Shown here: positions 1-50,153 of the stretch, in pieces
How positions within the stretch are numbered: position 1 is the first letter of the stretch
Layout: every line of letters starts with the position of its first letter
Assembly: GCA_017644045.1 (NCBI GenBank)
Contig: JAEPMI010000011.1
Location: 242,763 to 306,762, forward strand
Reading direction: 5' to 3'
DNA from: Deltaproteobacteria bacterium
Lineage (GTDB): Bacteria; Myxococcota_A; Polyangia; Polyangiales; Houyiibacteriaceae
DNA: 64,000 nucleotides
Translations under genes and position numbers: made by a program
The notes under the pieces: model-generated
Seen by the model: the letters and a program-made list of their open reading frames with translations, nothing else
The model's database searches: none
What the model was told of the DNA's origin: nothing

Positions 1-896
1 CGGCCCGACGCCTTGATGACCTCGGTGATCTCGAAGTCGGTCGTCTTCTGGATCACGACCAGATAGACCGCGAACTTCACGGCGACTTCGACGGCGCCGT
101 ACACGCCGCTCATGAAGGGATAGAAGACCGCGATGGCCGCGAGCGCGAGCGCGCCGCGGTAGAGGTCCTGGCCGAGGGGCTTGCCCTCCTTGCGGTTCTT
201 GAGGACGCCGACGACGTAACAGGACGCCGCGAAGATCACCGCCATCACGCCACCCGGGCCGAAGCCGGAGGCGAAGAGGGTCTCGACCTGGATGACCGCC
301 GTCTGGTTGACGATCGGGTAGAGGATCATCGGGATCGAGGGCGGGATGAGGATGCCCAGCGATCCGGCGCTGGTGAGCAGACCGTGGGTGAAGCGCTCGC
401 CGTAGCCGGCCTTCACCAGGGTGGGCGCCATCATCGCGCCGATCGCGACGACGGTGGCCGGGCTCGAGCCGCTGATCGCAGCGAAGAAGACGCAGGCGAA
501 GACCGCGCTCATCGCCAGGCCGCCGGGGATCCAGCCGATGCAGGCGCGGGCGAAGCCGATCAGCCGCTGACTGATTTCGCCGCGACCCATGACGGCGCCG
601 CTCATGATGAAGAGCGGAACGGCCAAGAGGGTGGGGTTGTCGCCGAGCCCGCGGCTGCGCTCGATGAGCGGGAACTCGTTGGGCTGGCTCGCGCCCATGT
701 AGACCACGAAGGCGGTCACGGTCAGCAGACCGATGATTCCGAAGAGCGGAACGCCGAGGACCGCGGAGCCGATGACGACGGCGGCGATGATGCCGCCCTT
801 GCCCATGAAGGGCAGGCCGATCGCCAGCAGCGCCAGGATGGCGAAGACGGGGATGTTGCCGCGAGGCTTGGCGGGCGCGGGAGGAGCGGCGCTCAT
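1..896 (-). CDS. TRAP transporter large permease (DctM family); 5' part only, gene runs off the left edge
   Basis: Not in the ORF track because it is open-ended. My reverse-strand translation from ATG 896-894 reads MSAAPPAPAKPRGNIPVFAILALLAIGLPFMGKGG..., and later ...SSPATVVAIGAMMAPTLVKAGYGERFTHGLLTSAGSLGILIPPSIPMILYPIV, the conserved DctM core. ATGA start/stop overlap with the upstream gene. Confidence 0.85.
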   Translation of the reverse strand, partial: MSAAPPAPAKPRGNIPVFAILALLAIGLPFMGKGGIIAAVVIGSAVLGVPLFGIIGLLTVTAFVVYMGASQPNEFPLIERSRGLGDNPTLLAVPLFIMSGAVMGRGEISQRLIGFARACIGWIPGGLAMSAVFACVFFAAISGSSPATVVAIGAMMAPTLVKAGYGERFTHGLLTSAGSLGILIPPSIPMILYPIVNQTAVIQVETLFASGFGPGGVMAVIFAASCYVVGVLKNRKEGKPLGQDLYRGALALAAIAVFYPFMSGVYGAVEVAVKFAVYLVVIQKTTDFEITEVIKASG

Positions 897-2152
897 CGGT
901 CGTCCTCCTCGTCTTCGTCGTCATCCGACTCCGACTCCGACTCCGACTCCGACTCCGACTCCGACTCCGACTCCGAGTCTGACTTCGACTCCGACTCCGA
1001 CTCCGACTTCAGGCTTTCGAGCCCGTCCATTGGCGGATGCCGGTCGTCGCCCTGGATCACCGGGTTGTACGGGCCCTGTCGGGCGGCCTTGGCGGCTGCG
1101 AGGTCCTCGTCCTCGGCCGTGCCGTAGGAGCCGCCCATCCAGGTGCTGATCGCCGCGGCGACGAATCGGATGACCGTGAGACCGAAGGCGAGGGGGATGG
1201 CGATGGTCGAGAACCAGTCGGGCACGCCCGTCTGCTCGTACACGCCGCCGTACTCCATCGTGGTCTTGGAGTACTCGTAGCCGAGCCAGGCCATGATCCC
1301 GCAGAAGAACGCCGCCAACAGGAACCCGAGGGCGCTGATGTGCTTCTCGATCTTCTCGGGGACGACCTTGCTCGCGGCCTCCATCCGGATGTGCTTGCCC
1401 TCGTGGGCGCAGATCGAGGCGCCGAGGAAGCCGACCCAGAGGAGCATGATCAGCGAGAGCTCCTTGGACCAGGAGTACTCGTCCGGGAAATAGCTGAGCG
1501 CGAAGGCCGCCAAGAGCCCGCCGGCGACCACCAGCCCGACGATGCGCGTGACCCAGCCGTCTTCCTTCTTGCGGAAGAGCTGCACGCTCCAGGGCACGGC
1601 GACCAGGCCGTAGAGGAGCAGGTAGAAGTACTTGCTCGGGAAGACCCGCATCCGGCGCTCGAAGCCGAACTCGTCGAGGCCCGGCGCCTTCCACTTCATC
1701 AGGAAGCCGAGCCCGGTGATGAGCCCCGCGACCCCCAGGGTGATGAGCACGCTCTTCCCGTCGATCTTCGACTTCTCGCCGCGCGGGCTTCGCGTGGCGG
1801 CGACCCCGAAGAAGAGGACCACCAGCCCCACCACCGAGCTCAGGATCGGTGCGACCGTGTGCTCGAGCATGTGGACGGTGCCCTCGTCGGTGACGCCGAA
1901 GAGGCGCGCGAGGAGCAGGCCCACCCGGCTGTCGGGGGCGGTCAGCCGCCGGTCGACGAAGTCGAGGAAGACCATGACCGTGATCGCCGAAAGGAAGGTC
2001 GCGACGATGGTCTGTTCGACGGCGAAGATCGCGTCGTCGATCTTCCGCAGAAGCCCGAACGGTCCCTCCTTGGGGTCCCCCGAATCGGTCTTCGCCGAAG
2101 CTTCTTCCGACCCGTCCCCGTTCGCGGACTCGGCAGTGGCGGCGGTAGCCAT
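893..2152 (-). CDS. TRAP small-permease-like (DctQ-type) membrane protein, oversized (419 aa), with an acidic Ser/Glu/Asp repeat tail
   Basis: ORF 893..2152. Multiple hydrophobic spans and translational coupling to the DctM gene. The C-terminus SESESESKSDSESESESESESESESESDDDEDEEDDR is encoded by CCGACT repeats. Confidence 0.7.
   Translation of the reverse strand: MATAATAESANGDGSEEASAKTDSGDPKEGPFGLLRKIDDAIFAVEQTIVATFLSAITVMVFLDFVDRRLTAPDSRVGLLLARLFGVTDEGTVHMLEHTVAPILSSVVGLVVLFFGVAATRSPRGEKSKIDGKSVLITLGVAGLITGLGFLMKWKAPGLDEFGFERRMRVFPSKYFYLLLYGLVAVPWSVQLFRKKEDGWVTRIVGLVVAGGLLAAFALSYFPDEYSWSKELSLIMLLWVGFLGASICAHEGKHIRMEAASKVVPEKIEKHISALGFLLAAFFCGIMAWLGYEYSKTTMEYGGVYEQTGVPDWFSTIAIPLAFGLTVIRFVAAAISTWMGGSYGTAEDEDLAAAKAARQGPYNPVIQGDDRHPPMDGLESLKSESESESKSDSESESESESESESESESDDDEDEEDDR
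925..1008. repeat. CCGACT hexamer array (about 12 units, slightly degenerate) inside the 3' end of the DctQ-like CDS
   Basis: The + strand reads ccgactccgactccgactcc... Same core as the four intergenic arrays. Confidence 0.9.
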
Positions 2153-14351: not shown

Positions 14352-14683
14352 GCGTCGACAGGGAGCGCGTGCTGCACGACGTGGGCAAGTACGTCGCGCG
14401 CACGGCGATGAATCTGCCGGAGGGCGCGCTGGTCGCGCCCGCGCTGGCCGAGCTCATGCTGCGAGACGTCTACGGCCGCGGCGACGAGCCGCGGATGAGC
14501 GAGACCTTCGACGCGCTGGTCGGCGAGACCGACGATCCGGTCCTCGGCGAGTGTCGCGACTGCCTCCAGGAAATCGATGCCCTCGAGGGTGACGCTCGGG
14601 CCGGAGACGTGGACGCACTCACCCGGATCGCGACGCTCGCTCGCTCGATCAGCGAACGGCTGAAGGCGTGGGCGCGCGCGTGA
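14348..14683 (+). CDS. Small hypothetical protein (111 aa) with an HDVGKY motif
   Basis: ATGA overlap upstream, and overlap with the downstream start. Only LHDVGKY resembles an HD-domain fragment. Confidence 0.45.
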   Translation: MSVDRERVLHDVGKYVARTAMNLPEGALVAPALAELMLRDVYGRGDEPRMSETFDALVGETDDPVLGECRDCLQEIDALEGDARAGDVDALTRIATLARSISERLKAWARA

Positions 14684-16341
14684 CCCACCCCACCAAGGTG
14701 CTCATCGTCGACGACGGCGATCGCTACGTGGAGCTGCTGCACGCGCTCCTGCGCGACCTCCGCTACGCCACCCGCTGCACGCTGCCGGGACCCTGCTGGG
14801 AGTGCCCCCACCGCGTGGGGTGCGAGCTGACCCACGCGCACGACTGGGCCGAAGCGCGCGAGGTCCTCGCGCGCGACTCGAGCGTGGACGCGGTGCTCCT
14901 CGACGTGCGCTTCGAGCTCCCGGAGCAGCGCTTGCTCGGGTCCGCGGACGAACCGCTCGAAGAACGGCAGCGACTGCAGGGGCTCCGCATCCTCGACGCG
15001 ATCCGGCACCTCCGTCCCGACGTCCCGGTGGTCCTGATGACCAGCGAGGAGGCGATCGGGCTCGAACGCGCGGCGCCGCTCGCGGCGGACGAGTACGTCA
15101 CGCTCGCGGGCGATGACGCCTTCGACGCGCAGAGCCTGGCGTCGCTGGTCTCTCGGTTGGTCGCGCGCCGCCGCCGCTACGACGACGACGACAGCTACGT
15201 CTGGGGCCAGAGCAAGGCGATGCGCGCGCTCCGCCACGGCGTGATCACGCGGATCCGAACCGGGTTGCCGCTGCTGGTGCTCGGCGAGACCGGGACCGGC
15301 AAGAGCGCGCTCGCCGAGCGCGTGATCCATGCGCAGTCGTCGCGGCGCGCCGGGCCCTTCGTCGGCGTCGATCTCGCCGCGCTCCCCGACACCCTCGTCG
15401 CCTCCGAGCTCTTCGGCTCCGTGAAGGGCGCGTTCAGTGGGGCGGTCGATCGACCCGGGCGCTTCGAGCAGGCCCACGGCGGGACGCTCTTCCTCGACGA
15501 GATCGGCAACCTCCCGGCGGACGCGCAGCGCATGCTCCTGCTCGCGCTGCAGGACGGGCGGGTGACGCGACTCGGCGACACCCGGCCCCGCGACGTCGAC
15601 GTGCGGCTCGTGGCCGCCACCCACGTGGACCTCGAGCGCCGGGTCCGGGAAGGCTCGTTCCGCGCCGACCTCTACGCGCGCCTCAACCCGGCCATGGCGT
15701 TCGAGCTCCCCGCGCTCCGCGAGCGGCGCGCGGATCTACGGGAGCTCTGCGAGGCGCTGGTGCGACGGCGCTTCGCCGAAGGGACCAACCACGACCGACT
15801 CGCGGCGTATCAGAAGGCGGTGGGCATCGGCGGTCCGGTCCTGGCCACCTTCGCGGTCGGCAAGGAGGACCCGCCGGCCGAGGGGGTGGCCTTCGTCTTC
15901 ACCGAGGAGAGCTGGAAGCGCATGCGGGCTCACCCGTGGCCGGGGAACATGCGCGAGCTCGAGTACTTTCTCGCGTCGGCGAGCTTGATGACGCTCGAGA
16001 CCGACCTCGACGCCGCGGAGCAGGGGAGGGCGTCGCTGCTCGGCGCGCGCCTCCCGGTGTCGGCCAGCCTGGTGAGCCAGCTGCTCGAGCGATCCTGGGT
16101 GGCGCCGGACGCGGAGGGTTCGTCACCGCTCGCGAGCGGGGCCATCGAGCCGAGAGCGCAGCTCAAGGAGGTCGTGCGCGATCTCGAGACGGCGCTCTTC
16201 GAGCGGCTCTTCGAGGAGACCGACGGCGACTTCGAGGCGATGGCCGCGCGTCTGCTCGAAGGCGACCCGGCGGAGAACGCGCGGCGGGTGCGGCTGCGGT
16301 TCAACCAGCTGGGGCTGCGGGTCCGTGAGCTTCGCCGCTGA
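14668..16341 (+). CDS. Sigma-54-dependent AAA+ transcriptional activator with an atypical Cys-containing receiver and no canonical Fis-type HTH
   Basis: Walker [18 protein letters not shown] (a GAFTGA variant), Walker B FLDEIG, and an R-finger region. The start may be GTG 14680, which gives a GTGA overlap with the upstream stop. Confidence 0.8.
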
Positions 16342-16345
16342 GGCG

Positions 16346-16750
16346 GCGACTCCGACTCCGACGCCGACTCCGACTCCGACGCCGACTCCGGCGCCGACGC
16401 CGACTCCGACGCCGACTCCGACTCCGACGCAGACGCCGACTCCGACTCCGACGCCGACTCCGACGCCGACTCCGACGCCGACGCCGACTCCGACGCCGAC
16501 TCCGACGCCGACGCCGACTCCGACGCCGACTCCGACGCCGACGCCGACTCCGACGCCGACTCCGGCGCCGACGCCGACTCCGCCGCCGACGCAGACTCCG
16601 ACAGCGACCACCGACCACCGAGAGCCGACTCCCGAGAGCCGACAGCCGACTCCCGAGAGCCGACTCCCGAGAGCCGACCGCCGACAGCCGAGAGCCGACT
16701 CCCGAGAACCAACCGACGACTCCGACGCCCGAGTGGACGAGAGCCGACTC
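16346..16750. repeat. CCGAC[T/G] hexamer array (about 40 units, with a 30-nt higher-order unit) decaying into ~14-nt units
   Basis: Read directly from the sequence. tccgacgccgacgccgactccgacgccgac occurs three times at 16471-16560. ccgagagccgactc-type units run from 16610 to 16750. Confidence 0.95.
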
Positions 16751-16786
16751 TGGCCTGAATCGACGGGCTGGGTGTAGCTTGCGGCC

Positions 16787-18162
<1,376 letters not shown>

Positions 18163-18166
<4 letters not shown>

Positions 18167-26003: not shown

Positions 26004-26131
26004 GTCGGCGTTCGGCGTCGGCGTCGGCGTCGGAGTTCGGCGTTCGGCGTCGGAGTTCGGCGTCGGTGTTCGGCGTCGGTGTTCGGCGTCGGAGTTCGGC
26101 GTCGGAGTTCGGCGTCCGTGTCGGACTTCGG
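26004..26131. repeat. GTCGG-core 6/7-nt array (reverse-complement orientation of the CCGAC family)
   Basis: gtcggcgttcggcgtcggcgtcggcgtcggagttcggcg... Starts 28 nt after the stop of the TPR/peptidase gene. Confidence 0.9.
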
Positions 26132-26365
26132 TTGTGTAGCCTCGCTTCGCATCGGCTTGCCTTCGGCAAGGGGTGAAGGGGCTGGGCTCGTCCTGCTGAT
26201 CTGAGGCTGCCCTCGCGGTCGGGGTAAGTAAACCCGGCTCGCTGCGCTCGCCCCGCCTTCGGCGGCTGACGGGGTTGACTGACCCCGCCCGCGAGGGCGG
26301 GGGGGCGGGTGCGCAGGACGGCGTGGCGGTCACGTCGTCGCTCGCGCGCCGAAAGGAACCCAATC

Positions 26366-26698
26366 ATGCTTCTCGTTCAGGAACTCTCGTTGGAGCTCGT
26401 GGCTCTCGTTCATCGCGATGTCATGCCGAAGGCTCGCGTTGGCGATCCGGACCTCGCGGACCAGCTCGGTCGTGCGGTGCGGTCGACGCCGCTCAACATC
26501 GCAGAAGGCGAAGGCTACGGGCGGTCGCGTCGGCGGGCGCATCACTTCAAGACGGCGCTCGGCTCCGGTCGGGAGGTCTTCATCGCACTTCGACTGTTGG
26601 TCTCGACCAACGTGGTGCCTGTGGCTCAGGCGGCCGAGAGCGTTGCGCTCAGTGACCGGGTCAACAAGATGCTCTTCGGGCTGATTCGGAAGGGCTGA
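26366..26698 (+). CDS. Four-helix-bundle protein (23S rRNA intervening-sequence protein / DGR Avd-like family)
   Basis: MLLVQELSLELV...DQLGRAVRSTPLNIAEGEGYGRSRRRAHHFKTALGSGREV... matches the family signature. AAGGA Shine-Dalgarno lies before ATG 26366. The ORF-track start 26309 is probably too early. Confidence 0.8.
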   Translation: MLLVQELSLELVALVHRDVMPKARVGDPDLADQLGRAVRSTPLNIAEGEGYGRSRRRAHHFKTALGSGREVFIALRLLVSTNVVPVAQAAESVALSDRVNKMLFGLIRKG

Positions 26699-26714: not shown

Positions 26715-26747
26715 GAGACCCGCCGGGCAGGCTGCCCGGCGGGTCTC
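26715..26747. terminator. Bidirectional hairpin between the convergent four-helix-bundle genes
   Basis: 16+1+16 perfect palindrome GAGACCCGCCGGGCAG g CTGCCCGGCGGGTCTC. No clear U-tract. Confidence 0.55.
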
Positions 26748-26760
26748 CGTCACGTTCGCG

Positions 26761-27099
26761 CTACGCGACCTGGTGCCGCGTGAGCTTCCAGAGAATCGCG
26801 CAGACGTGATCGAGCCGGTCGAGCGCCTGCTTCACGCCCGCGTTTCGCTTCAGCGCCCGAGTCGCCAATCCGAGCTCGATGCAGGTCTTGCTCTCACGAG
26901 CGGACCCGAGCGCGATCTGGAAGTGATTCCGCTGCCGCTTGCCGCCGAGCAGCCCGAGCCCCTCGGAGACATTGAGCGCCACGGACCGAGCCGCACGATG
27001 CAGCTGCTGAGCGAGCTCGGCATCGTGAGCCGAGAGCATCGGCATGACGTCTTCATGGACCGCCGAAACAGCGTCGAGCGAGAGAGAATAGATCTTCAT
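26761..27099 (-). CDS. Four-helix-bundle protein (23S rRNA IVS / Avd-like family), paralog of 26366..26698
   Basis: MKIYSLSLDAV...QQLHRAARSVALNVSEGLGLLGGKRQRNHFQIALGSARES... GGAGG Shine-Dalgarno lies 6 nt before ATG 27099. The ORF-track start 27252 adds an implausible extension. Confidence 0.8.
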   Translation of the reverse strand: MKIYSLSLDAVSAVHEDVMPMLSAHDAELAQQLHRAARSVALNVSEGLGLLGGKRQRNHFQIALGSARESKTCIELGLATRALKRNAGVKQALDRLDHVCAILWKLTRHQVA

Positions 27100-27319
27100 T
27101 GGAAACCTCCGGTTGTTGCTGCCGTGGACGCCTCGTCCTGGCGCAGCCCCTCCGCCCTCGAGCGCAGGCGGAGTCAACCCCTTGCCGTCGCGAAGCGACG
27201 GTGCGGAGGCCAAAGGCCGGAGCAGGGTTGACGCCGCCGAGCACGAGGGCACGGTTGAACGACCAGGACGAGAGCCCCATCACCACTGGCTGAACGTGCC
27301 GGGGCGGCTGGGGCTCCCA

Positions 27320-27602
27320 GTCGGAGCTCGGAGTCGGCCGTCGGAGCTCGGAGCTCGGAGTCGGAGTTCGGAGTTCGGAGTCGGCCGTCGGAGTTCGGAG
27401 TTCGGAGTTCGGAGTTCGGAGTTCGGAGTCGGACTCGGAGTTCAGAGTCGGAGTTCGGAGTCGGCGTCGGCGTCGGCGTCGGAGTTCGGAGTTCGGAGTC
27501 GGACTCGGAGTTCAGAATCGGAGTTCGGAGTCGGAGTCGGAGTCGGAGTCGGCGTCAGAGTCGGAGTCGGCGTCCGCGTCGGAGTCGGCGTCCGCCGTCG
27601 GT
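27320..27602. repeat. GTCGG/TTCGG-core 6/7-nt array (units GGAGTC, GGAGTTC, GGAGCTC, GGCGTC)
   Basis: gtcggagctcggagtcggccgtcggagctcgg...ggagttcggagttcggagttcgg... Ends 34 nt before the stop of the FAD-oxidase gene. Confidence 0.95.
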
Positions 27603-34607: not shown

Positions 34608-34717
34608 GAGCGGGACTCTAGCGTCTCGGAGTCGAGCTTGGAACGACTGGATTTACGGGGCGTCCCTGCCTTTGGAGGTCCGGAGACTCCGGCTCCGAGA
34701 GCCGACGACCGACCCTG

Positions 34718-46436: not shown

Positions 46437-47957
46437 ATGCGCCGTTTGCAGCTTGTCTTTTTGACTTCCCTCGCCCTCGTGGCCCTCGCCGGTTGCGGTC
46501 GTTCCGTTCTCAGCACCGACGACTCCTTCGAAGACGGTGGCCCGCCGCGCGACATGATCGACCCCCCGGACCTGCCGGGTGAGGTCTGCGGCAACGGGTT
46601 CTGCGCCCCGGGCCTCGAGAGCTGCAACACCTGCGCGGCGGACTGTGGCGAGTGCCCCCGCGAGTGCGGCGACGGCCTCTGCGGTGGTGACGAGGACTGC
46701 GCGAGCTGCCCGGCCGACTGTGGCTTCTGCCGCGAGTGCGGCGACGGCTTCTGTGACCCGGACGTCGAGGCTTGCGACAGCTGTCCGGAGGACTGCGGCT
46801 CCTGCGCCGGCTGCGGCGACGGTGCCTGCAACGGAGCCGAGACCTGCGCCTCCTGCGCGATCGATTGTGGCGCCTGCGTCCGCTGCGGTGACGGCACCTG
46901 TCAGGCGGACCGCGGCGAGAGCTGCGCGACCTGCCCGAGCGACTGCGGCTTCTGCGACACCTGCGGCGACGGCGCGTGCACGGCTGGCGAGAGCTGCTCG
47001 AGCTGCCCGCGCGACTGCGGTCTCTGCGAGACCTGCGGCAACGGCCGCTGTGGCGCCGGCGAGGACTGCGCGTCCTGCCCCGACGACTGCGGGTTCTGCG
47101 TGACCTGCGGCGACGGCATGTGTGCCGGCAGCGAGAGCTGCTCGAGCTGTCCGGCCGACTGTGGCCGCTGCGAGTTCTGTGGGGACCGCACCTGCGGCAC
47201 CGGCGAGAGCTGCACCAACTGCCCGGAGGACTGCGGTCTCTGCGAGAGCTGCGGCAACGGCCGTTGCGCGACCAGCGAGAGCTGCTCCACCTGCCCGGTG
47301 GACTGCGGTCTCTGCGTCGAGTGCGGCGACGACCGCTGCAGCCCGTCGGAGAGCTGCAACTCCTGCCCCGGTGACTGCGGTGTCTGCGACACCTGCGAGG
47401 ACGGCTTCTGCCGCCCCGAGGACGGCGAGGACTGCCTCAGCTGTCCGGAGGACTGCGACGCCTGTCCGGCCTGCGGCGACGGCATGTGTGACGCGGGCAT
47501 CGAGAACTGCTCGACCTGTCCGGCGGACTGCGGGATCTGCCCCGGCTGTGGCGACGGACGCTGTCAGCCGCGGCGCGGTGAGACCTGCGCGAGCTGTGCC
47601 CGCGACTGCGGTGCGTGCTCGTTCTGCGGCAACGGGGTCTGCGAGGCGGACGAGTTCGAGAGCTGCACGAACTGTCCCGGCGACTGCGGGACCTGCCCCG
47701 GCGTCACCTGCATCGAGGTGGTGACCTGCACCTTCGGCTGCATCGAGCTGATGTCCTCTCCGCCGATGGTGTCGTTCACCTGCATCTCGACATGCGTCGC
47801 TCAGGCGTGTGCGGACGTGCAGTTCTTCGTCGATCAAGTCATCAACTGCGCCATTGGTCAGATCGGCACCTGCACCGACATCAGCTGCATCATGAACGAG
47901 TGCAGCTCCGAGATCGCGGCCTGCCTGACGGCGCCGCGCTGCCCGATGGGCATGTGA
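46437..47957 (+). CDS. Lipoprotein with 15 tandem Cys-rich repeats (Myxococcus-type cysteine-rich repeat) plus a distinct Cys-rich C-terminal domain
   Basis: Lipobox LALAGC. 15 copies of C-G-[DN]-G-x-C-x4-6-C-x2-C-x2-D-C-G-x-C at a ~25-aa (75-bp) period. Confidence 0.85.
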   Translation: MRRLQLVFLTSLALVALAGCGRSVLSTDDSFEDGGPPRDMIDPPDLPGEVCGNGFCAPGLESCNTCAADCGECPRECGDGLCGGDEDCASCPADCGFCRECGDGFCDPDVEACDSCPEDCGSCAGCGDGACNGAETCASCAIDCGACVRCGDGTCQADRGESCATCPSDCGFCDTCGDGACTAGESCSSCPRDCGLCETCGNGRCGAGEDCASCPDDCGFCVTCGDGMCAGSESCSSCPADCGRCEFCGDRTCGTGESCTNCPEDCGLCESCGNGRCATSESCSTCPVDCGLCVECGDDRCSPSESCNSCPGDCGVCDTCEDGFCRPEDGEDCLSCPEDCDACPACGDGMCDAGIENCSTCPADCGICPGCGDGRCQPRRGETCASCARDCGACSFCGNGVCEADEFESCTNCPGDCGTCPGVTCIEVVTCTFGCIELMSSPPMVSFTCISTCVAQACADVQFFVDQVINCAIGQIGTCTDISCIMNECSSEIAACLTAPRCPMGM

Positions 47958-48438: not shown

Positions 48439-48440
48439 AG

Positions 48441-48764
48441 CCGACTGCCGACTCCGACTCCGACAGCCGACTCCGACAGCCGACTCCGACAGCCGACTCC
48501 GACAGCCGACTGCCGACTCCGACAGCCGACTCCGACTCCGACTCCGACTCCGACTCCGACTGCCGACTGCCGACAGCCGACAGCCGACAGCCGACAGCCG
48601 ACAGCCGACAGCCGACAGCCGACTCCGACTGCCGACAGCCGACTCCGACTGCCGACAGCCGACAGCCGACTCCGACTGCCGACGACCGACAGCCGACCAC
48701 CGACTCCGACGCTGAGACAGCCGACTGCCGACAGCCGACGCCGACGCCGACACCGACACCCGAC
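48441..48764. repeat. CCGAC-core array mixing 6-nt (CCGACT) and 7-nt (CCGACAG/CCGACTG) units; fills the whole convergent intergenic gap
   Basis: Starts 3 nt after the NUDIX TAG and ends at the base before the stop of the minus-strand SGNH gene. Seven consecutive CCGACAG units at 48570-48618. Confidence 0.95.
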
Positions 48765-50153
48765 TCACTCCGCGTCGACGACCGGCCGGTCGATCACCAC
48801 CGTGACCGACTTCTCCTGCTCGGGGCTCAGCTCCACGACCAGGTGGTGCACGCCTCGCTGCAGGGTCACCTCGAGGTCTTCCTCGCCGCGGGCCGCGCAG
48901 GCCATCGGGTCGGCCTCGGCGCCGAGCAGGAACGTGCGCGCCCCTTCGTCGGCGAAGACGTTCACTTCGAGCCGGGTCTCTTCCTCGACCCGAATGCGGT
49001 AGACCCGCTCCGCGCCTCCGGAGGGCTCGGCGCCCTCGCACCCGTAGGCCGTCAGGGCGCTTCCTTCGGAGGGAACGAAGCGCTCGCCGAAGGGGACGCG
49101 CGTCAGGTGGAGCGGCGCCTCGGCCGTGCCCTCGCCTGCCATCTCGCGGGGCTCCGGGTCGGGGGCGCCTTCGCCGGCGACCACGGTCCGGCGCAACCGA
49201 TCGAGCAGCTCGAGGGTGCGCAGGTTCCGCTGGTTGCTGCCGTGCTGGAGCCCTTCTTCGCTCATCACGCAGGCGCGGCCACGACCGCCCTCGAGCAGCG
49301 TGTTCGGGTGCACTCCGTCTCCGGCGAGCCCGCGCCCCGGGAGGGCGTCCTGGGCGACGTAGAAGTCGAGGTAGGGCACCTGCCAGGCCTGGGCGATGGC
49401 ACGGCTGATCCGGTTGTAGCGCTTGGCCCAACCGTCCATCTCGGGATCGTCGCCCCGAGGTGAGGTCGCTCCGACGATCGGGATCAGCCCCCGGTCGAGC
49501 AGCTGGTCCAGCATTCGCTCCAGTCGCTCGGCGAAGCTCCGGGGGCGGCGCGCCTGGACGTCGTTGCCGCCGAAGAAGACCAGCGCGAAGCGTGCGTCGG
49601 TGGCGCGTGCCTCCTGGAGCGCGCGCGACGGGCGGCCCGCGAGCCCCTGACGCAGCGACCAGCCGACCTGGGCGGCGGTGCTCTCGCGCCCAAAGGGGTT
49701 GGAGCCGGCGGCGTTGCCGCGACGGAAGAACTCGAGGGTCTCGACGAGCTCGTCGTGGTCCGCGAGGTCCAGGTTGTCGCCGTCGTAGGCGAAACAGTGG
49801 AGGAAGGCCCGGCTCTCGACCGACGAGCCCCCGAGCTTGATGAAGACGTCGTCGCGGTGCTCGCGGCCCTCGCGCAGGGCGCGGAGCCGGGCGACCATCG
49901 CCGGAGTCAGCGCCGAGTGGATGGCCGGCGCGACCCACGTGAGCGCCGGGTCCGGCGGTGGCTCGGGGATCAGCCGGACCTCTTCGGCCGGCTCCGGCTC
50001 GGGGTCCGCCGTCGCCCGTGCCGGCCGCTCGTCGCCGGTGGGCTCGGCCATCTCTGCAGTCTCCGGTTCGGGAGGCGTGGCGCAGGGCGCGAGCGCACTG
50101 ACGGCCGCGACACTCAGCCCGAGGGCCAACGCTGCGTGCACCGGAGACGACAC
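48765..50153 (-). CDS. SGNH/GDSL-like hydrolase lipoprotein with a C-terminal beta-sandwich-like domain
   Basis: Lipobox LAPC. FFGGNDV and GDGVHPN blocks. Confidence 0.55.
   Translation of the reverse strand: MSSPVHAALALGLSVAAVSALAPCATPPEPETAEMAEPTGDERPARATADPEPEPAEEVRLIPEPPPDPALTWVAPAIHSALTPAMVARLRALREGREHRDDVFIKLGGSSVESRAFLHCFAYDGDNLDLADHDELVETLEFFRRGNAAGSNPFGRESTAAQVGWSLRQGLAGRPSRALQEARATDARFALVFFGGNDVQARRPRSFAERLERMLDQLLDRGLIPIVGATSPRGDDPEMDGWAKRYNRISRAIAQAWQVPYLDFYVAQDALPGRGLAGDGVHPNTLLEGGRGRACVMSEEGLQHGSNQRNLRTLELLDRLRRTVVAGEGAPDPEPREMAGEGTAEAPLHLTRVPFGERFVPSEGSALTAYGCEGAEPSGGAERVYRIRVEEETRLEVNVFADEGARTFLLGAEADPMACAARGEEDLEVTLQRGVHHLVVELSPEQEKSVTVVIDRPVVDAE

Follow-up and report, generated by a model that had tools for sequence, protein, structure and literature searches.

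Between two co-directional sigma-54 activator genes in a MAG of the Sandaracinaceae (Polyangiales, Myxococcota) lies a spacer filled by a short tandem repeat, which we term array 3. The window analyzed here, by which we mean the whole 64-kb stretch of DNA, contains further members of the same satellite family, whose host is this MAG. The features of the activator spacer are as follows:

14680..16341, plus strand: upstream sigma-54 activator gene (Pfam Sigma54_activat), with its stop 5 nt before array 3
16342..16760, plus strand: array 3, non-coding CCGAC[T/G] hexamers decaying into 7-nt CCGAGAG/CCGACTC units, filling the activator spacer
16471..16560, plus strand: three exact copies of the 30-nt (5-hexamer) block TCCGACGCCGACGCCGACTCCGACGCCGAC
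16787..18166, plus strand: downstream NtrC-type sigma-54 activator gene, with receiver, AAA+ and Fis HTH domains

Array 3 takes up ~420 bases of the 445-nt spacer and comprises ~55 units. Its first unit begins 5-6 nt past the activator TGA (16339-16341) and its last one ends ~36 nt ahead of the ATG at 16787, in close agreement with the 5 and 37 nt given in the original prediction for this DNA. Tandem Repeats Finder assigns periods of 6/12/18/30 to positions 16347-16602, followed by 14/21-nt units up to ~16707, which bears out the predicted decay into ~14-nt units. The hexameric core is built of CCGACG (n=16) and CCGACT (n=15), and the 3' part of CCGAGAG, CCGACTC and CCGACAG units. The 30-nt unit predicted to occur three times at 16471-16560 is exact in the window, and these identical blocks are best read as the trace of a recent block duplication; nevertheless, their copy number is assembly-dependent and hence uncertain, given that a second, independent assembly of this sample, from ENA, shows a 100-N scaffold gap exactly at window positions 16533-16562. 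The product of the downstream activator gene is identical in the ENA scaffold. The spacer holds neither a sigma-70-like promoter nor an intrinsic terminator, and the sense RNA of array 3 folds more weakly than all of its shuffled counterparts (100/100; z = +4.97).

Five CCGA-core tandem arrays, including array 3, are recovered by Tandem Repeats Finder in the window. They lie where they had been predicted and together span ~1.24 kb (~1.2 kb in the prediction), such that ~2% of the window consists of one 6-7-nt motif. For arrays 2 and 4 the program sets slightly narrower limits than those listed, namely 26005-26116 and 27319-27592. The remaining arrays, along with the module enclosed by two of them, are listed below:

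924..1008, minus strand: array 1, TCCGAC x14, an in-frame hexamer within the 3' end of the DctQ gene (893..2152, minus strand)
26004..26131, minus strand: array 2, CCGACG/CCGAAC[T/A/G] 6/7-nt units with a 13-nt TRF period, C-rich on the minus strand, ending 234 nt before the start of hb1
26132..26365, plus strand: hb1 leader, containing a conserved long hairpin
26366..26698, plus strand: hb1, a PF05635/TIGR02436 four-helix-bundle (S23p/Avd-like) gene
26715..26747, no strand: G+C-rich hairpin common to the convergent hb1 and hb2, as read from the sequence
26761..27099, minus strand: hb2, a PF05635/TIGR02436 four-helix-bundle gene, 39% identical to hb1
27100..27318, minus strand: hb2 leader, with a conserved 23-bp helix
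27319..27602, minus strand: array 4, CCGACT/CCGAACT units, C-rich on the minus strand, ending 219 nt before the start of hb2
34695..34712, plus strand: three-unit mini-array CCGAGAG-CCGACGA-CCGA in a divergent spacer, marginal in that shuffles give 0.36 such runs per window
48439..48766, plus strand: array 5, a solo array of CCGACAG/CCGACT/CCGACTG 6/7-nt units that fills the gap between convergent NUDIX and GDSL genes

CCGA-core runs of at least four units at 6-7-nt spacing form 11 segments in the window, whereas 100 dinucleotide-preserving shuffles yield none; beyond the five arrays the motif stays at chance level, with 24 two-unit runs where 20.9 +/- 4.4 are expected. All sizeable non-coding tandem arrays found in the window by Tandem Repeats Finder contain the CCGA core, and these non-coding arrays, with their mixed 6/7-nt units, number four in ~84 kb of the source genome, the 10 kb flanking the window on each side holding no further arrays. 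With head-to-tail short units beyond chance, and scores of 337-400 for array 3, the arrays qualify as short tandem repeats or VNTRs. CRISPR arrays are made of 23-50-nt repeats with unique spacers between them; here the 6-7-nt units are contiguous and devoid of spacers, and no Rfam CRISPR-DR match rose above threshold. Likewise, a search of the window for known RNAs and tRNAs (Rfam gathering and E-value thresholds, ARAGORN) returned no match.

In composition, arrays 3 and 5 contain 46-50% C versus 26-28% G, and arrays 2 and 4 are the mirror image of this on the plus strand, confirming the predicted strand asymmetry. The repeats are also nearly free of stops, as had been proposed, with 0-1 stop codons per frame, array 4 having one in each of the three minus-strand frames. 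Since arrays 2-5 mix 6- and 7-nt units, they maintain no constant reading frame. The arrays begin 2-33 nt past stop codons and, as predicted, all five abut gene 3' ends; but array 1 lies inside DctQ, and arrays 2, 3 and 4 also lie 5' of a co-directional gene. The further notion that 3'-end placement marks a positional class did not hold up: with four intergenic sites the placement is not significant, as ~3/4 of the spacers of a compact genome touch a 3' end. All array lengths come from short-read assemblies, one of them gapped inside array 3. An assembly artefact is ruled out with respect to the existence of the arrays, which are present in independent assemblies and in relatives; the caveat stays for copy number. 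As bacterial satellites, the window arrays are unusual in size but not new in kind.

Array 1 is the coding member of this set. The acidic tail at the DctQ C-terminus owes its (Ser-Glu)n stretch to this array and reads ...SESESESKSDSESESESESESESESDDDEDEEDDR followed by the stop, which overlaps the ATG of the downstream DctM gene. The tails of DctQ orthologs are hypervariable, ranging from SESESE x3 to SDSDSD or PEPE, with 3 to ~13 SE units. Array 1 thus shows that the hexamer is able to encode protein, and the frame of the upstream activator stays readable for ~85 codons past its TGA. These two observations are what one would expect if array 3 were an Asp/Ser-rich C-terminal extension of the activator, reached by TGA read-through or masked by a sequencing error. 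We nevertheless consider this extremely improbable and reject such a tail: the TGA is kept in three assemblies, namely the window, the independent ENA assembly and the relative L127; every activator ortholog stops at the same residues; and the 7-nt units in the 3' third disrupt any frame. The orthologs measure 551-556 aa, with one of 610 aa bearing N-terminal and internal extras, and share an ...LRVRELRR-like C-terminal end without a tail. Hence, the attributes of a protein-coding low-complexity tail are found in array 1 and are lacking in array 3, which the mixed 6/7-nt units and tail-less orthologs indicate to be non-coding.

Comparison with relatives, which are different species or strains as opposed to a population sample, points to rapid turnover at these sites. 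In the syntenic L127, whose activator is 96% identical, homologous flanks enclose a spacer of just 98 nt with only 4-5 units (CCGACG CCGAGAA CCGAGAA CCGAC..CCGACTC). The same relative has mini-arrays of CCGA units at sites comparable to those of the window arrays, and displays a truncated hb1 and a mini-array where the window carries the full module. At the array-3 site, L177 (84%) has an extra gene and L128 (81%) an unrelated 215-nt spacer, both without an array, and neither the window nor any relative has remnants of a cassette or leader beside array 3. The array-5 junction, traced through GDSL orthologs gathered by homology search, spans 326 nt here versus 5 nt in L133 (70%); in L130 (82%) it consists of decayed units over 132 nt, and in L132 (77%) it holds both a CCGACT x4 mini-array and the four-helix-bundle module. 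Beside the solo array 5 of the window there are no leader or four-helix-bundle remnants. The recorded gene call for the GDSL protein differs, probably in its start.

For arrays 3 and 5, copy number at the same locus therefore differs between related genomes, as is characteristic of VNTRs. Such free variation in presence and length (445 versus 98 nt and 326 versus 5 nt) is what the original prediction had named as a sign of a plain microsatellite. Its contention that the arrays form one family with one core, and are no random debris, is upheld by the mini-arrays of the relative, the flanks of the module and the wider cassette data.

Arrays 2 and 4 constitute the two flanks of this module and are direct repeats of each other. 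They have CCGAAC units in common that are absent from arrays 3 and 5, and array 4, which is identical in the ENA scaffold, lies 33 nt past the stop of an ALO oxidase gene. The order of elements is array, leader, hb2, hairpin, hb1, leader, array, and both the window and L135 have it in full. The products of hb1 and hb2 match Pfam PF05635 (E = 1e-12 and 9e-14, respectively) and TIGR02436 (E = 4e-14 and 6e-17), and each gene carries a conserved hairpin leader of ~170 nt. In the leader helix 90.7% of cells are paired versus 31-47% when it is slid, and 13 pairs display compensatory changes, with 0/500 shuffles being equally good. The G+C-rich hairpin between the two genes recurs in L132, L135 and L136. 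The same module is encountered at two other loci, one in a relative and one on a metagenome contig, and wherever these contigs reach an edge of the module there are CCGA-core arrays (the L132 contig stops inside hb1); L136 and L092 (Polyangiaceae) furnish additional cassette-array pairs. The CCGA array family is physically tied to PF05635 four-helix-bundle cassettes. Neighbors of the module are the ALO oxidase, a lipoxygenase, a kinase and a 738-aa protein without a Pfam match; the module itself has no recombinase, transposase or reverse transcriptase, and the ENA assembly breaks within the hb1 cassette. Diversity-generating retroelements (DGRs) combine a reverse transcriptase and a TR/VR repeat pair beside an Avd-like gene. 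No reverse transcriptase domain was found among the proteins scanned near the Avd-like genes, which sets the module apart from these elements.

The PF05635 four-helix-bundle (4HB) proteins are very common and functionally unknown, and are homologous to both the Avd protein of DGRs and the ORF of 23S rRNA intervening sequences (IVS). In a set of 42 unrelated metagenome loci, where the array motif varies, the density of tandem arrays is 0.78/kb near a 4HB gene versus 0.036/kb farther off, a 21-fold difference. Of the metagenome 4HB loci whose upstream sequence extends over 150 nt or more (n=32), 17 carry an array whose end lies 57-356 nt (median 218) before the gene; the window distances for comparison are 219 nt (hb2) and 234 nt (hb1). 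In such cassettes of unrelated bacteria, the short-unit array stops right before a conserved hairpin leader. In 10/10 loci with enough upstream sequence, the cassette and the best-scoring ORF ahead of it point the same way; if that ORF belongs to the adjacent gene, 4-117 nt separate its stop from the array. The wider cassette data also include recurrent arrays starting no more than ~35 nt past the stop of a co-oriented gene. By motif, the cassettes form groups, with GGAAGC/CGGAAG in L140, L143, L144 and L146, and CCGA in L092, L135, L136, L139 and L155. The single cassettes L136, L171, L175 and L160 display inverted copies of one motif on both sides. Searches for 4HB homologs on plasmids (tblastn) and in viral contigs gave no match. 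The CCGACT hexamer is not unique to this lineage: a pattern scan for its arrays recovered at least 119 loci from many phyla, mostly with single pure-hexamer arrays, and the source genome is not among the matches listed. As only L092 matched the 4HB HMM among the listed loci, most hexamer arrays elsewhere appear to be unrelated to the cassette.

Several known systems bear comparison with these arrays. Like VNTRs and SSRs, they have head-to-tail short units, higher-order block duplications and fast expansion or contraction between relatives, and both spacers and, where the frame is kept, disordered protein tails tolerate them. The motifs of ordinary SSRs have independent origins and are unrelated to one another, whereas in the window a single core recurs in either orientation, in arrays that extend to 300-400 nt and border a specific cassette; moreover, these arrays give no sign of phase-variable control of a neighboring gene. 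Array 3 RNA recalls a rut site in being long, untranslated, C-rich, weakly structured and right after a stop. However, rut sites are not tandem repeats, while the window arrays are tandem, inconsistently oriented and non-conserved. Cyanobacterial STRRs are tandem units of ~7 nt at many non-coding sites per genome, with lineage-specific motifs and no known function (PMC2670836). The window arrays resemble them as dispersed short-unit arrays, often between or after genes. They differ in belonging not to filamentous heterocyst-forming cyanobacteria with STRR motifs but to a member of the Myxococcota, and in their CCGAC-core, mixed 6/7-nt units; the window arrays are in addition linked to PF05635 cassettes, a link that STRRs may or may not share. 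Borg repeats reportedly evolve rapidly, are recent and independently arisen, and yield disordered regions when in genes (bioRxiv 10.1101/2022.05.18.492195). Such disorder parallels array 1 in the DctQ tail, and the difference is that Borgs are archaeal elements whose motif varies by site, unlike the one motif across sites seen here.

A close counterpart of the cassettes comes from the 23S rRNA IVS of Coxiella burnetii, which is regarded as a selfish insert that uses host transcription and is processed by RNase III at its stem, with strain-variable tandem heptamers, GACAGAT x2-3, directly 5' of the S23p ORF (PMC4990558). The module between arrays 2 and 4 encodes the same PF05635 family, and array 3 has no adjoining PF05635 ORF. 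In contrast to the IVS, the window cassettes follow the stops of protein-coding genes, and there is no rRNA in the window into which a 23S insertion could have occurred. Furthermore, arrays of the window type have 10-50 units, and a separate conserved hairpin leader comes between them and the ORF, which starts ~220 nt farther on. The original prediction that no described element class matches the arrays was hence overstated, with STRRs (PMC2670836), VNTRs/SSRs and the Coxiella IVS heptamers (PMC4990558) being close precedents.

Taking these observations together, we propose that array 3 is probably a non-coding hypervariable tandem repeat, namely a lineage-specific, STRR-like and cassette-linked CCGA satellite that expanded in situ. 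It would have grown in place from a short seed through replication slippage or unequal exchange of multi-unit blocks, with selection merely filtering the sites at which growth is tolerated. A disordered protein tail would tolerate pure hexamers, and mixed 6/7-mers would persist in spacers right after stops. Array 3 would then give its neighbors no conserved service. As a side effect, ~445 nt of untranslated, C-rich and unusually unstructured RNA could be a good entry site for Rho; such loading at array 3 is plausible and would weaken co-transcription of the downstream activator. Against this explanation stands the single core in either orientation, which slippage alone leaves unexplained. The link of array 3 itself to the cassettes is suggested by two things, the shared motif and the precedent of array 5 and L132, and a lineage-specific function may exist despite the lack of conservation of the arrays.

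Alternatively, the arrays could be integral parts of a mobile or selfish 4HB element, as its termini, landing pads or RNA excision stem, a possibility that we regard as real but doubtful. Recombination between arrays could release the module and let it insert again; array 3 and other solo arrays would be footprints after cassette loss or unoccupied landing pads; and the inverted arrays of single cassettes could pair in RNA to form an RNase III stem, as in the 23S rRNA IVS. This would fit with the presence of one module at three loci with CCGA-core arrays at every edge reached by the contigs, and with its direct-repeat flanks (arrays 2 and 4) of private unit types. It would also fit with the solo array 5 at the exact junction that holds the module in L132, the truncated hb1 and mini-array of L127 at the full-module site of the window, and the inverted motif copies flanking the four single cassettes. 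Also consistent are the near-constant array-gene distance, the co-orientation of cassettes with the upstream gene, and the ENA assembly break inside the hb1 cassette, as expected of a multi-copy sequence. In the Coxiella IVS, moreover, the first of the tandem heptamers 5' of the S23p ORF is the site of RNase III action (PMC4990558). Conversely, the module contains no recombinase, transposase or reverse transcriptase and has the oxidase, lipoxygenase and 738-aa protein as neighbors; the array-3 site bears no trace of a cassette or leader in the window or any relative; and about half of the 4HB loci have no upstream array. Nor does the motif keep one orientation with respect to the gene, being C-rich before hb2 and G-rich before hb1, and two kinds of tolerated inserts may simply co-accumulate in permissive spacers. 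Extended beyond this lineage, the same idea leads to the tentative proposal, to which we give limited credence, that PF05635 genes are the cargo of a widespread, previously undescribed selfish cassette with the arrays as functional parts. Such a cassette would follow the stop of a co-oriented host gene and consist of a 6-7-nt hypervariable array, a ~170-nt hairpin leader and the 4HB gene, with a hairpin at its 3' end, plus an inverted array copy in single cassettes. The arrays would serve as recombination landing pads or as an RNase III stem freeing the element from the host transcript, and the array between the sigma-54 activators would be a footprint or an empty landing pad.

We consider it unlikely that the arrays are selected Rho-utilization (rut-like) 3' tracts that end transcription in an intrinsic-terminator-poor genome. 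The excess of C over G with a YC dinucleotide each 6 nt, the sense RNA of array 3 being less structured than all shuffles, the terminator-free spacer and the array starts 2-33 nt past stop codons are in keeping with such a role, as is the C-rich sense strand of arrays 3, 4 and 5 (NUDIX side), two L127 mini-arrays, L132 and L136. It is weakened by the G-rich sense strand of array 2, the L127 mini-array beside ALO, the right-hand array of L135 and the GDSL side of array 5. The resulting tally, ~6-8 C-rich versus 3-5 G-rich arrays, is not significant and its cases are non-independent; which strand is C-rich does not consistently follow the sense of the abutting gene, and this weakens the Rho-tract role raised in the original prediction. 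Even in array 3, with C/G of ~1.7-1.9 on the sense strand, 26-28% G is high for a classical rut site, and its sister arrays are G-rich in sense. Close relatives have missing or tiny arrays at the same sites, and cassette arrays of other bacteria are G-rich or AT-rich, e.g. GGAAGC, GCGGGC and CTTAAT. Furthermore, array 3 lies between co-directional genes (445 nt apart versus 98 nt in the relative), and termination there would cut off the second gene. To our knowledge, no sequence-specific binding has been reported for the four-helix-bundle family, and a role of the arrays as binding sites for a pentameric four-helix-bundle protein, or another repeat-reading protein, appears quite improbable. 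Under such a scheme, arrays close to a cassette would serve in its autoregulation, solo ones would provide additional sites, and co-evolution of motif and protein would result in different motifs per lineage. The fixed distance between array and 4HB gene across taxa, the single motif per genome, solo sites included, and the motif types common to related cassettes (the GGAAGC/CGGAAG and CCGA groups) would agree with this, as would the homology of the family to Avd, a pentamer that binds nucleic acids and reverse transcriptase (PMC10053308). Nevertheless, array length varies from 4 to >40 units, arrays are gained or lost between close relatives, and hb1 and hb2 go with one motif despite being only 39% identical.

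Our preferred reading of array 3 as a lineage-specific CCGA satellite expanded in place has a practical corollary, in that such arrays are a warning that short-read assemblies of these genomes break or collapse at these sites. Beyond this, the array leads to a repeatable architecture comprising a host gene stop, a short-unit tandem array, a covariation-supported hairpin leader and a PF05635 gene. This architecture offers an experimental way into the old question of the role and spread of the S23p/IVS proteins. The cassette pattern further hints at where dispersed short tandem arrays like the STRRs may come from and, if the selfish-cassette reading were true, the STRR arrays of cyanobacteria might share that origin.

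The tandem array between two activator genes (array 3) is one of five in the window with a CCGA core, and Tandem Repeats Finder recovered all five arrays listed in the original prediction. No segment with at least four CCGA cores at 6-7-nt spacing was encountered in 100 dinucleotide-preserving shuffles of the window, as against eleven in the window itself, thereby confirming that the arrays exceed chance. All eleven fall within the five arrays, and elsewhere in the window the motif occurs at chance level. The claim that the family is not random debris is likewise upheld, as all sizeable non-coding tandem arrays of the window have this one core. The features concerned are:

893..2152, minus strand: DctQ gene, the last 40 codons of which hold array 1 (924-1008)
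14680..16341, plus strand: upstream sigma-54 activator gene (Pfam)
16342-16760: array 3
26004-26131: array 2
26132-26365: leader of hb1
26366..26698, plus strand: hb1, a four-helix-bundle gene (PF05635/TIGR02436)
26761..27099, minus strand: hb2, a second gene of this family
27100-27318: leader of hb2
27319-27602: array 4
48439-48766: array 5

Array 3 sets in 5-6 nt past the TGA of the upstream activator gene and ends 36 nt before the ATG of the second, NtrC-type activator gene. Its hexamer section, reaching to 16602, contains 31 intact units (16 CCGACG and 15 CCGACT) with a few point variants, and is followed up to ~16750 by 7-nt CCGAGAG/CCGACTC/CCGACAG units. The three exact copies of a 30-nt block (16471-16560), the excess of C (46-50%) over G (26-28%) in a window of ~70% G+C, and the near-absence of stop codons across six frames were all borne out in the sequence; the finding is real and its first description largely accurate. 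The sense RNA folds more weakly than 100 of 100 shuffles (z = +4.97), and neither a sigma-70-like promoter nor an intrinsic terminator was found in the spacer. Since 6- and 7-nt units are intermixed in arrays 2-5, these are unable to hold a reading frame.

Array 3 directly follows the activator TGA; array 1, in a correction to the first description, is coding and lies within the DctQ gene. There it reads ...SESESESKSDSESESESESESESESDDDEDEEDDR up to a stop codon that shares bases with the DctM start codon (ATG). The acidic end (DDDEDEEDDR-like) is retained in DctQ orthologs, and the stretch preceding it is SESESE x3, SDSDSD, PEPEAEPE, or absent; array 1 is thus labile like arrays 3 and 5. An interpretation of array 3 as a lost protein tail was rejected: a DSDSDA reading lies in frame after the TGA, yet the upstream-activator orthologs (551-556 aa, and one of 610 aa with N-terminal and internal extras) all terminate in ...LRVRELRR or a close variant and have no Asp/Ser tail. 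The reading is therefore a by-product of the hexamer. Homologs of this activator place the host in the Sandaracinaceae (Polyangiales, Myxococcota), and the clade shows a further in-frame expansion of a short repeat in the internal SEPSEPSEPSEGS insert of one 71% ortholog (P0007). A long coding tandem repeat at 46437-47957 (72/144-nt period) encodes cysteine-rich CxxCGDGxC...CxxDCG-type units, which are typical of myxobacterial secreted proteins, and is unrelated to the CCGAC arrays.

In the syntenic contig L127 of a relative (GCA_964462035.1; activator 96% identical), just 98 nt separate the two activator genes, with the units CCGACG CCGAGAA CCGAGAA CCGAC..CCGACTC and flanks homologous to those of the window; these 4-5 units are a seed of array 3, corresponding to its 3' part. 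In an 84% relative (L177, 11676-12675), an extra ~330-aa gene with a scaffold gap inside lies between the activators, and there is no array. In an 81% relative (L128) the spacer measures 215 nt and is unrelated; the junction is a variable site in the clade. Ahead of the second activator ATG, a stretch of ~20 nt (GGTGTAGC.TGCGGCC) is conserved between the window, L127 and L177, and L128 has it in a looser form. Array 5 (326 nt) occupies all of the interval from the NUDIX stop codon to that of GDSL. The same site holds 5 nt in a 70% relative (L133), 132 nt of decayed GAGCCGAC-like units in an 82% relative (L130/L131), and CCGACT x4 with a gene module inserted behind it in a 77% relative (L132). 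Within 21.6 kb, L127 also has three mini-arrays of window-type units, all of them 7-12 nt away from a stop codon. These comparisons, made between related species or strains and not within a population sample, show the arrays to be evolutionarily labile; their presence and length differ among these relatives, an outcome that the original prediction had named as counting against a special element.

Array 3 is non-coding and lineage-specific, has a small homologous seed in the nearest relative, and bears recent block duplications. We infer that it grew in situ via slippage or unequal exchange, and its effect on neighboring genes is probably incidental. Rho prefers long, untranslated, unstructured C-rich RNA (rut sites) as its substrate; the RNA of array 3 being of this kind, the second activator may be partly uncoupled from the first. 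A role as a selected terminator is weakened because array 3 is not conserved, the sense strand is G-rich in array 2, in the L127 mini-array by ALO and in the right-hand array of the metagenome contig L135, and cassette-linked arrays elsewhere have G-rich or AT-rich motifs.

Arrays 2 and 4 enclose the convergent genes hb1 and hb2, whose family is homologous to Avd (PMC10053308) and between which lies a G+C-rich hairpin. Read on the minus strand, 33 nt separate the ALO oxidase stop from the C-rich array 4, which is followed by a leader of 219 nt and by hb2; past the hairpin come hb1 and its leader of 234 nt, both reversed, and then the C-rich array 2 and the stop of a gene for a 738-aa protein. 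The two arrays are mutual direct repeats and share CCGAAC[T/A/G] units absent from arrays 3 and 5. In L132, at the position of the window's solo array 5, the GDSL stop is followed by CCGACT x4, a leader, an hb2-like gene, a hairpin and an hb1-like gene, inside which the contig ends. L135 has the whole module, with an array tail at one end and a CCGACT/CCGAATT/CCGACGA array adjoining an unrelated gene at the other, and L136 a single hb2-like cassette (stop, CCGA-core array, leader, gene, hairpin, inverted mini-array). At the module site of the window, L127 retains only the 3' half of hb1, the hairpin and a mini-array. Among the genome-scan matches listed, one Polyangiaceae MAG locus (L092), recovered via the array pattern alone, has at least 13 copies of CCGACT at the end of a contig, and a four-helix-bundle gene follows 164 nt downstream of them. 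Multiple CCGACT/GAGTCG hexamer arrays occur, among the matches listed, in other large high-G+C genomes: a Planctomycetia MAG (L029, L035, L070, L081, L098), a Polyangiales MAG (L004, L076, L100, L104) and Singulisphaera (L111); these may be either acidic linkers in proteins or non-coding satellites. No cassette or leader trace was found at the array 3 site in the window or any relative compared; its link to the cassette rests on the shared motif and the array-5/L132 precedent.

hb1 and hb2 each follow a leader conserved over ~170-200 nt, and the sequence from array to gene is conserved between the hb1 and hb2 cassettes and across many metagenome loci. It folds into a 23-bp helix with 90.7% of cells paired, versus 31-47% with partners slid by 1-3 columns, and with compensatory changes at 13 pairs across 12 sequences from different contigs; none of 500 shuffles matched these values. 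No Rfam family matched the leader, which makes it a candidate for a new motif with structure at the RNA or DNA level. Its few G-U pairs are consistent with a sense-strand RNA, but it may instead be a DNA structure.

A metagenome scan seeded solely with peptide patterns inside the four-helix-bundle protein yielded 42 loci, which were then searched with Tandem Repeats Finder. Upstream sequence of 150 nt or more was available for 32 loci, and in 17 of these a short-unit array ends 57-356 nt before the gene start (median 218 nt; 219 and 234 nt in the window); downstream, 12/38 loci have an array no more than 800 nt away. Arrays number 0.78 per kb close to the gene versus 0.036 per kb further off (33 versus 2 arrays). 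The motifs vary by contig: GGAAGC x30, AGCGGG x26, TCGATC x24, CGCCCCA x13, ATGCGTG x14, GCGGGC x14, CTTAAT x8 and several of CCGA type. Single cassettes flanked on both sides (L136, L171, L175, L160) have inverted copies of one motif, and the arrays are direct in the convergent two-gene modules (window, L135) and in L137. In each of the ten loci where the upstream sequence sufficed, the top-scoring ORF upstream points in the same direction as the cassette; when this ORF is the immediate neighbor, 4-117 nt separate its stop from the array. Among L135-L176, cassettes on unrelated contigs have 6-13-nt tandem arrays of differing motifs just upstream of the leader (e.g., L144 141-321; L141 2449-2766; L169 2651-2792, 3853-3944; L171 1-92, 651-858), and many contigs stop inside such arrays.

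The window is itself metagenome-derived, and array length is uncertain. In an ENA assembly made independently from this sample, scaffold_45 carries 100 N precisely in place of window 16533-16562, within the 30-nt blocks, and ends at 26257; the next scaffold, scaffold_117, begins at 26645. This break (26258-26644) interrupts the leader and gene of hb1, which would be expected of a cassette present in several genomic copies. In the hb2 leader (27230-27263), eight clustered base differences separate the window (TTGACG...GGTTGAACGACC) from scaffold_117 (TTTACG...GATGAACAGCTC). As one of these, the T replacing G in the TTGACG block, agrees with L135, they may reflect strain heterogeneity or collapse of cassette copies.

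Comparable short arrays are known: filamentous cyanobacteria have STRR arrays, in which units of ~7 nt are repeated in tandem in the spaces between genes and which have no known function (PMC2670836). The Coxiella 23S rRNA IVS, described as a selfish element excised by RNase III, has tandem heptamers directly ahead of its S23p ORF, two or three in number and variable between strains (PMC4990558), and cas loci have been found to contain 23S_rRNA_IVP genes (PMC3936711). The general array-leader-gene architecture was not described in the literature searched, which is weak evidence given its incomplete coverage. Array 3 is best classed with the hypervariable STRR/VNTR-type satellites of bacteria and not with conserved regulatory elements. 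What sets the family beyond an ordinary microsatellite is the use of one motif per genome, the sites directly after stop codons, and the association with PF05635 cassettes and a structured leader. The association of arrays with PF05635 cassettes is reproducible, statistically strong, as far as could be checked new to the literature, and open to direct test.
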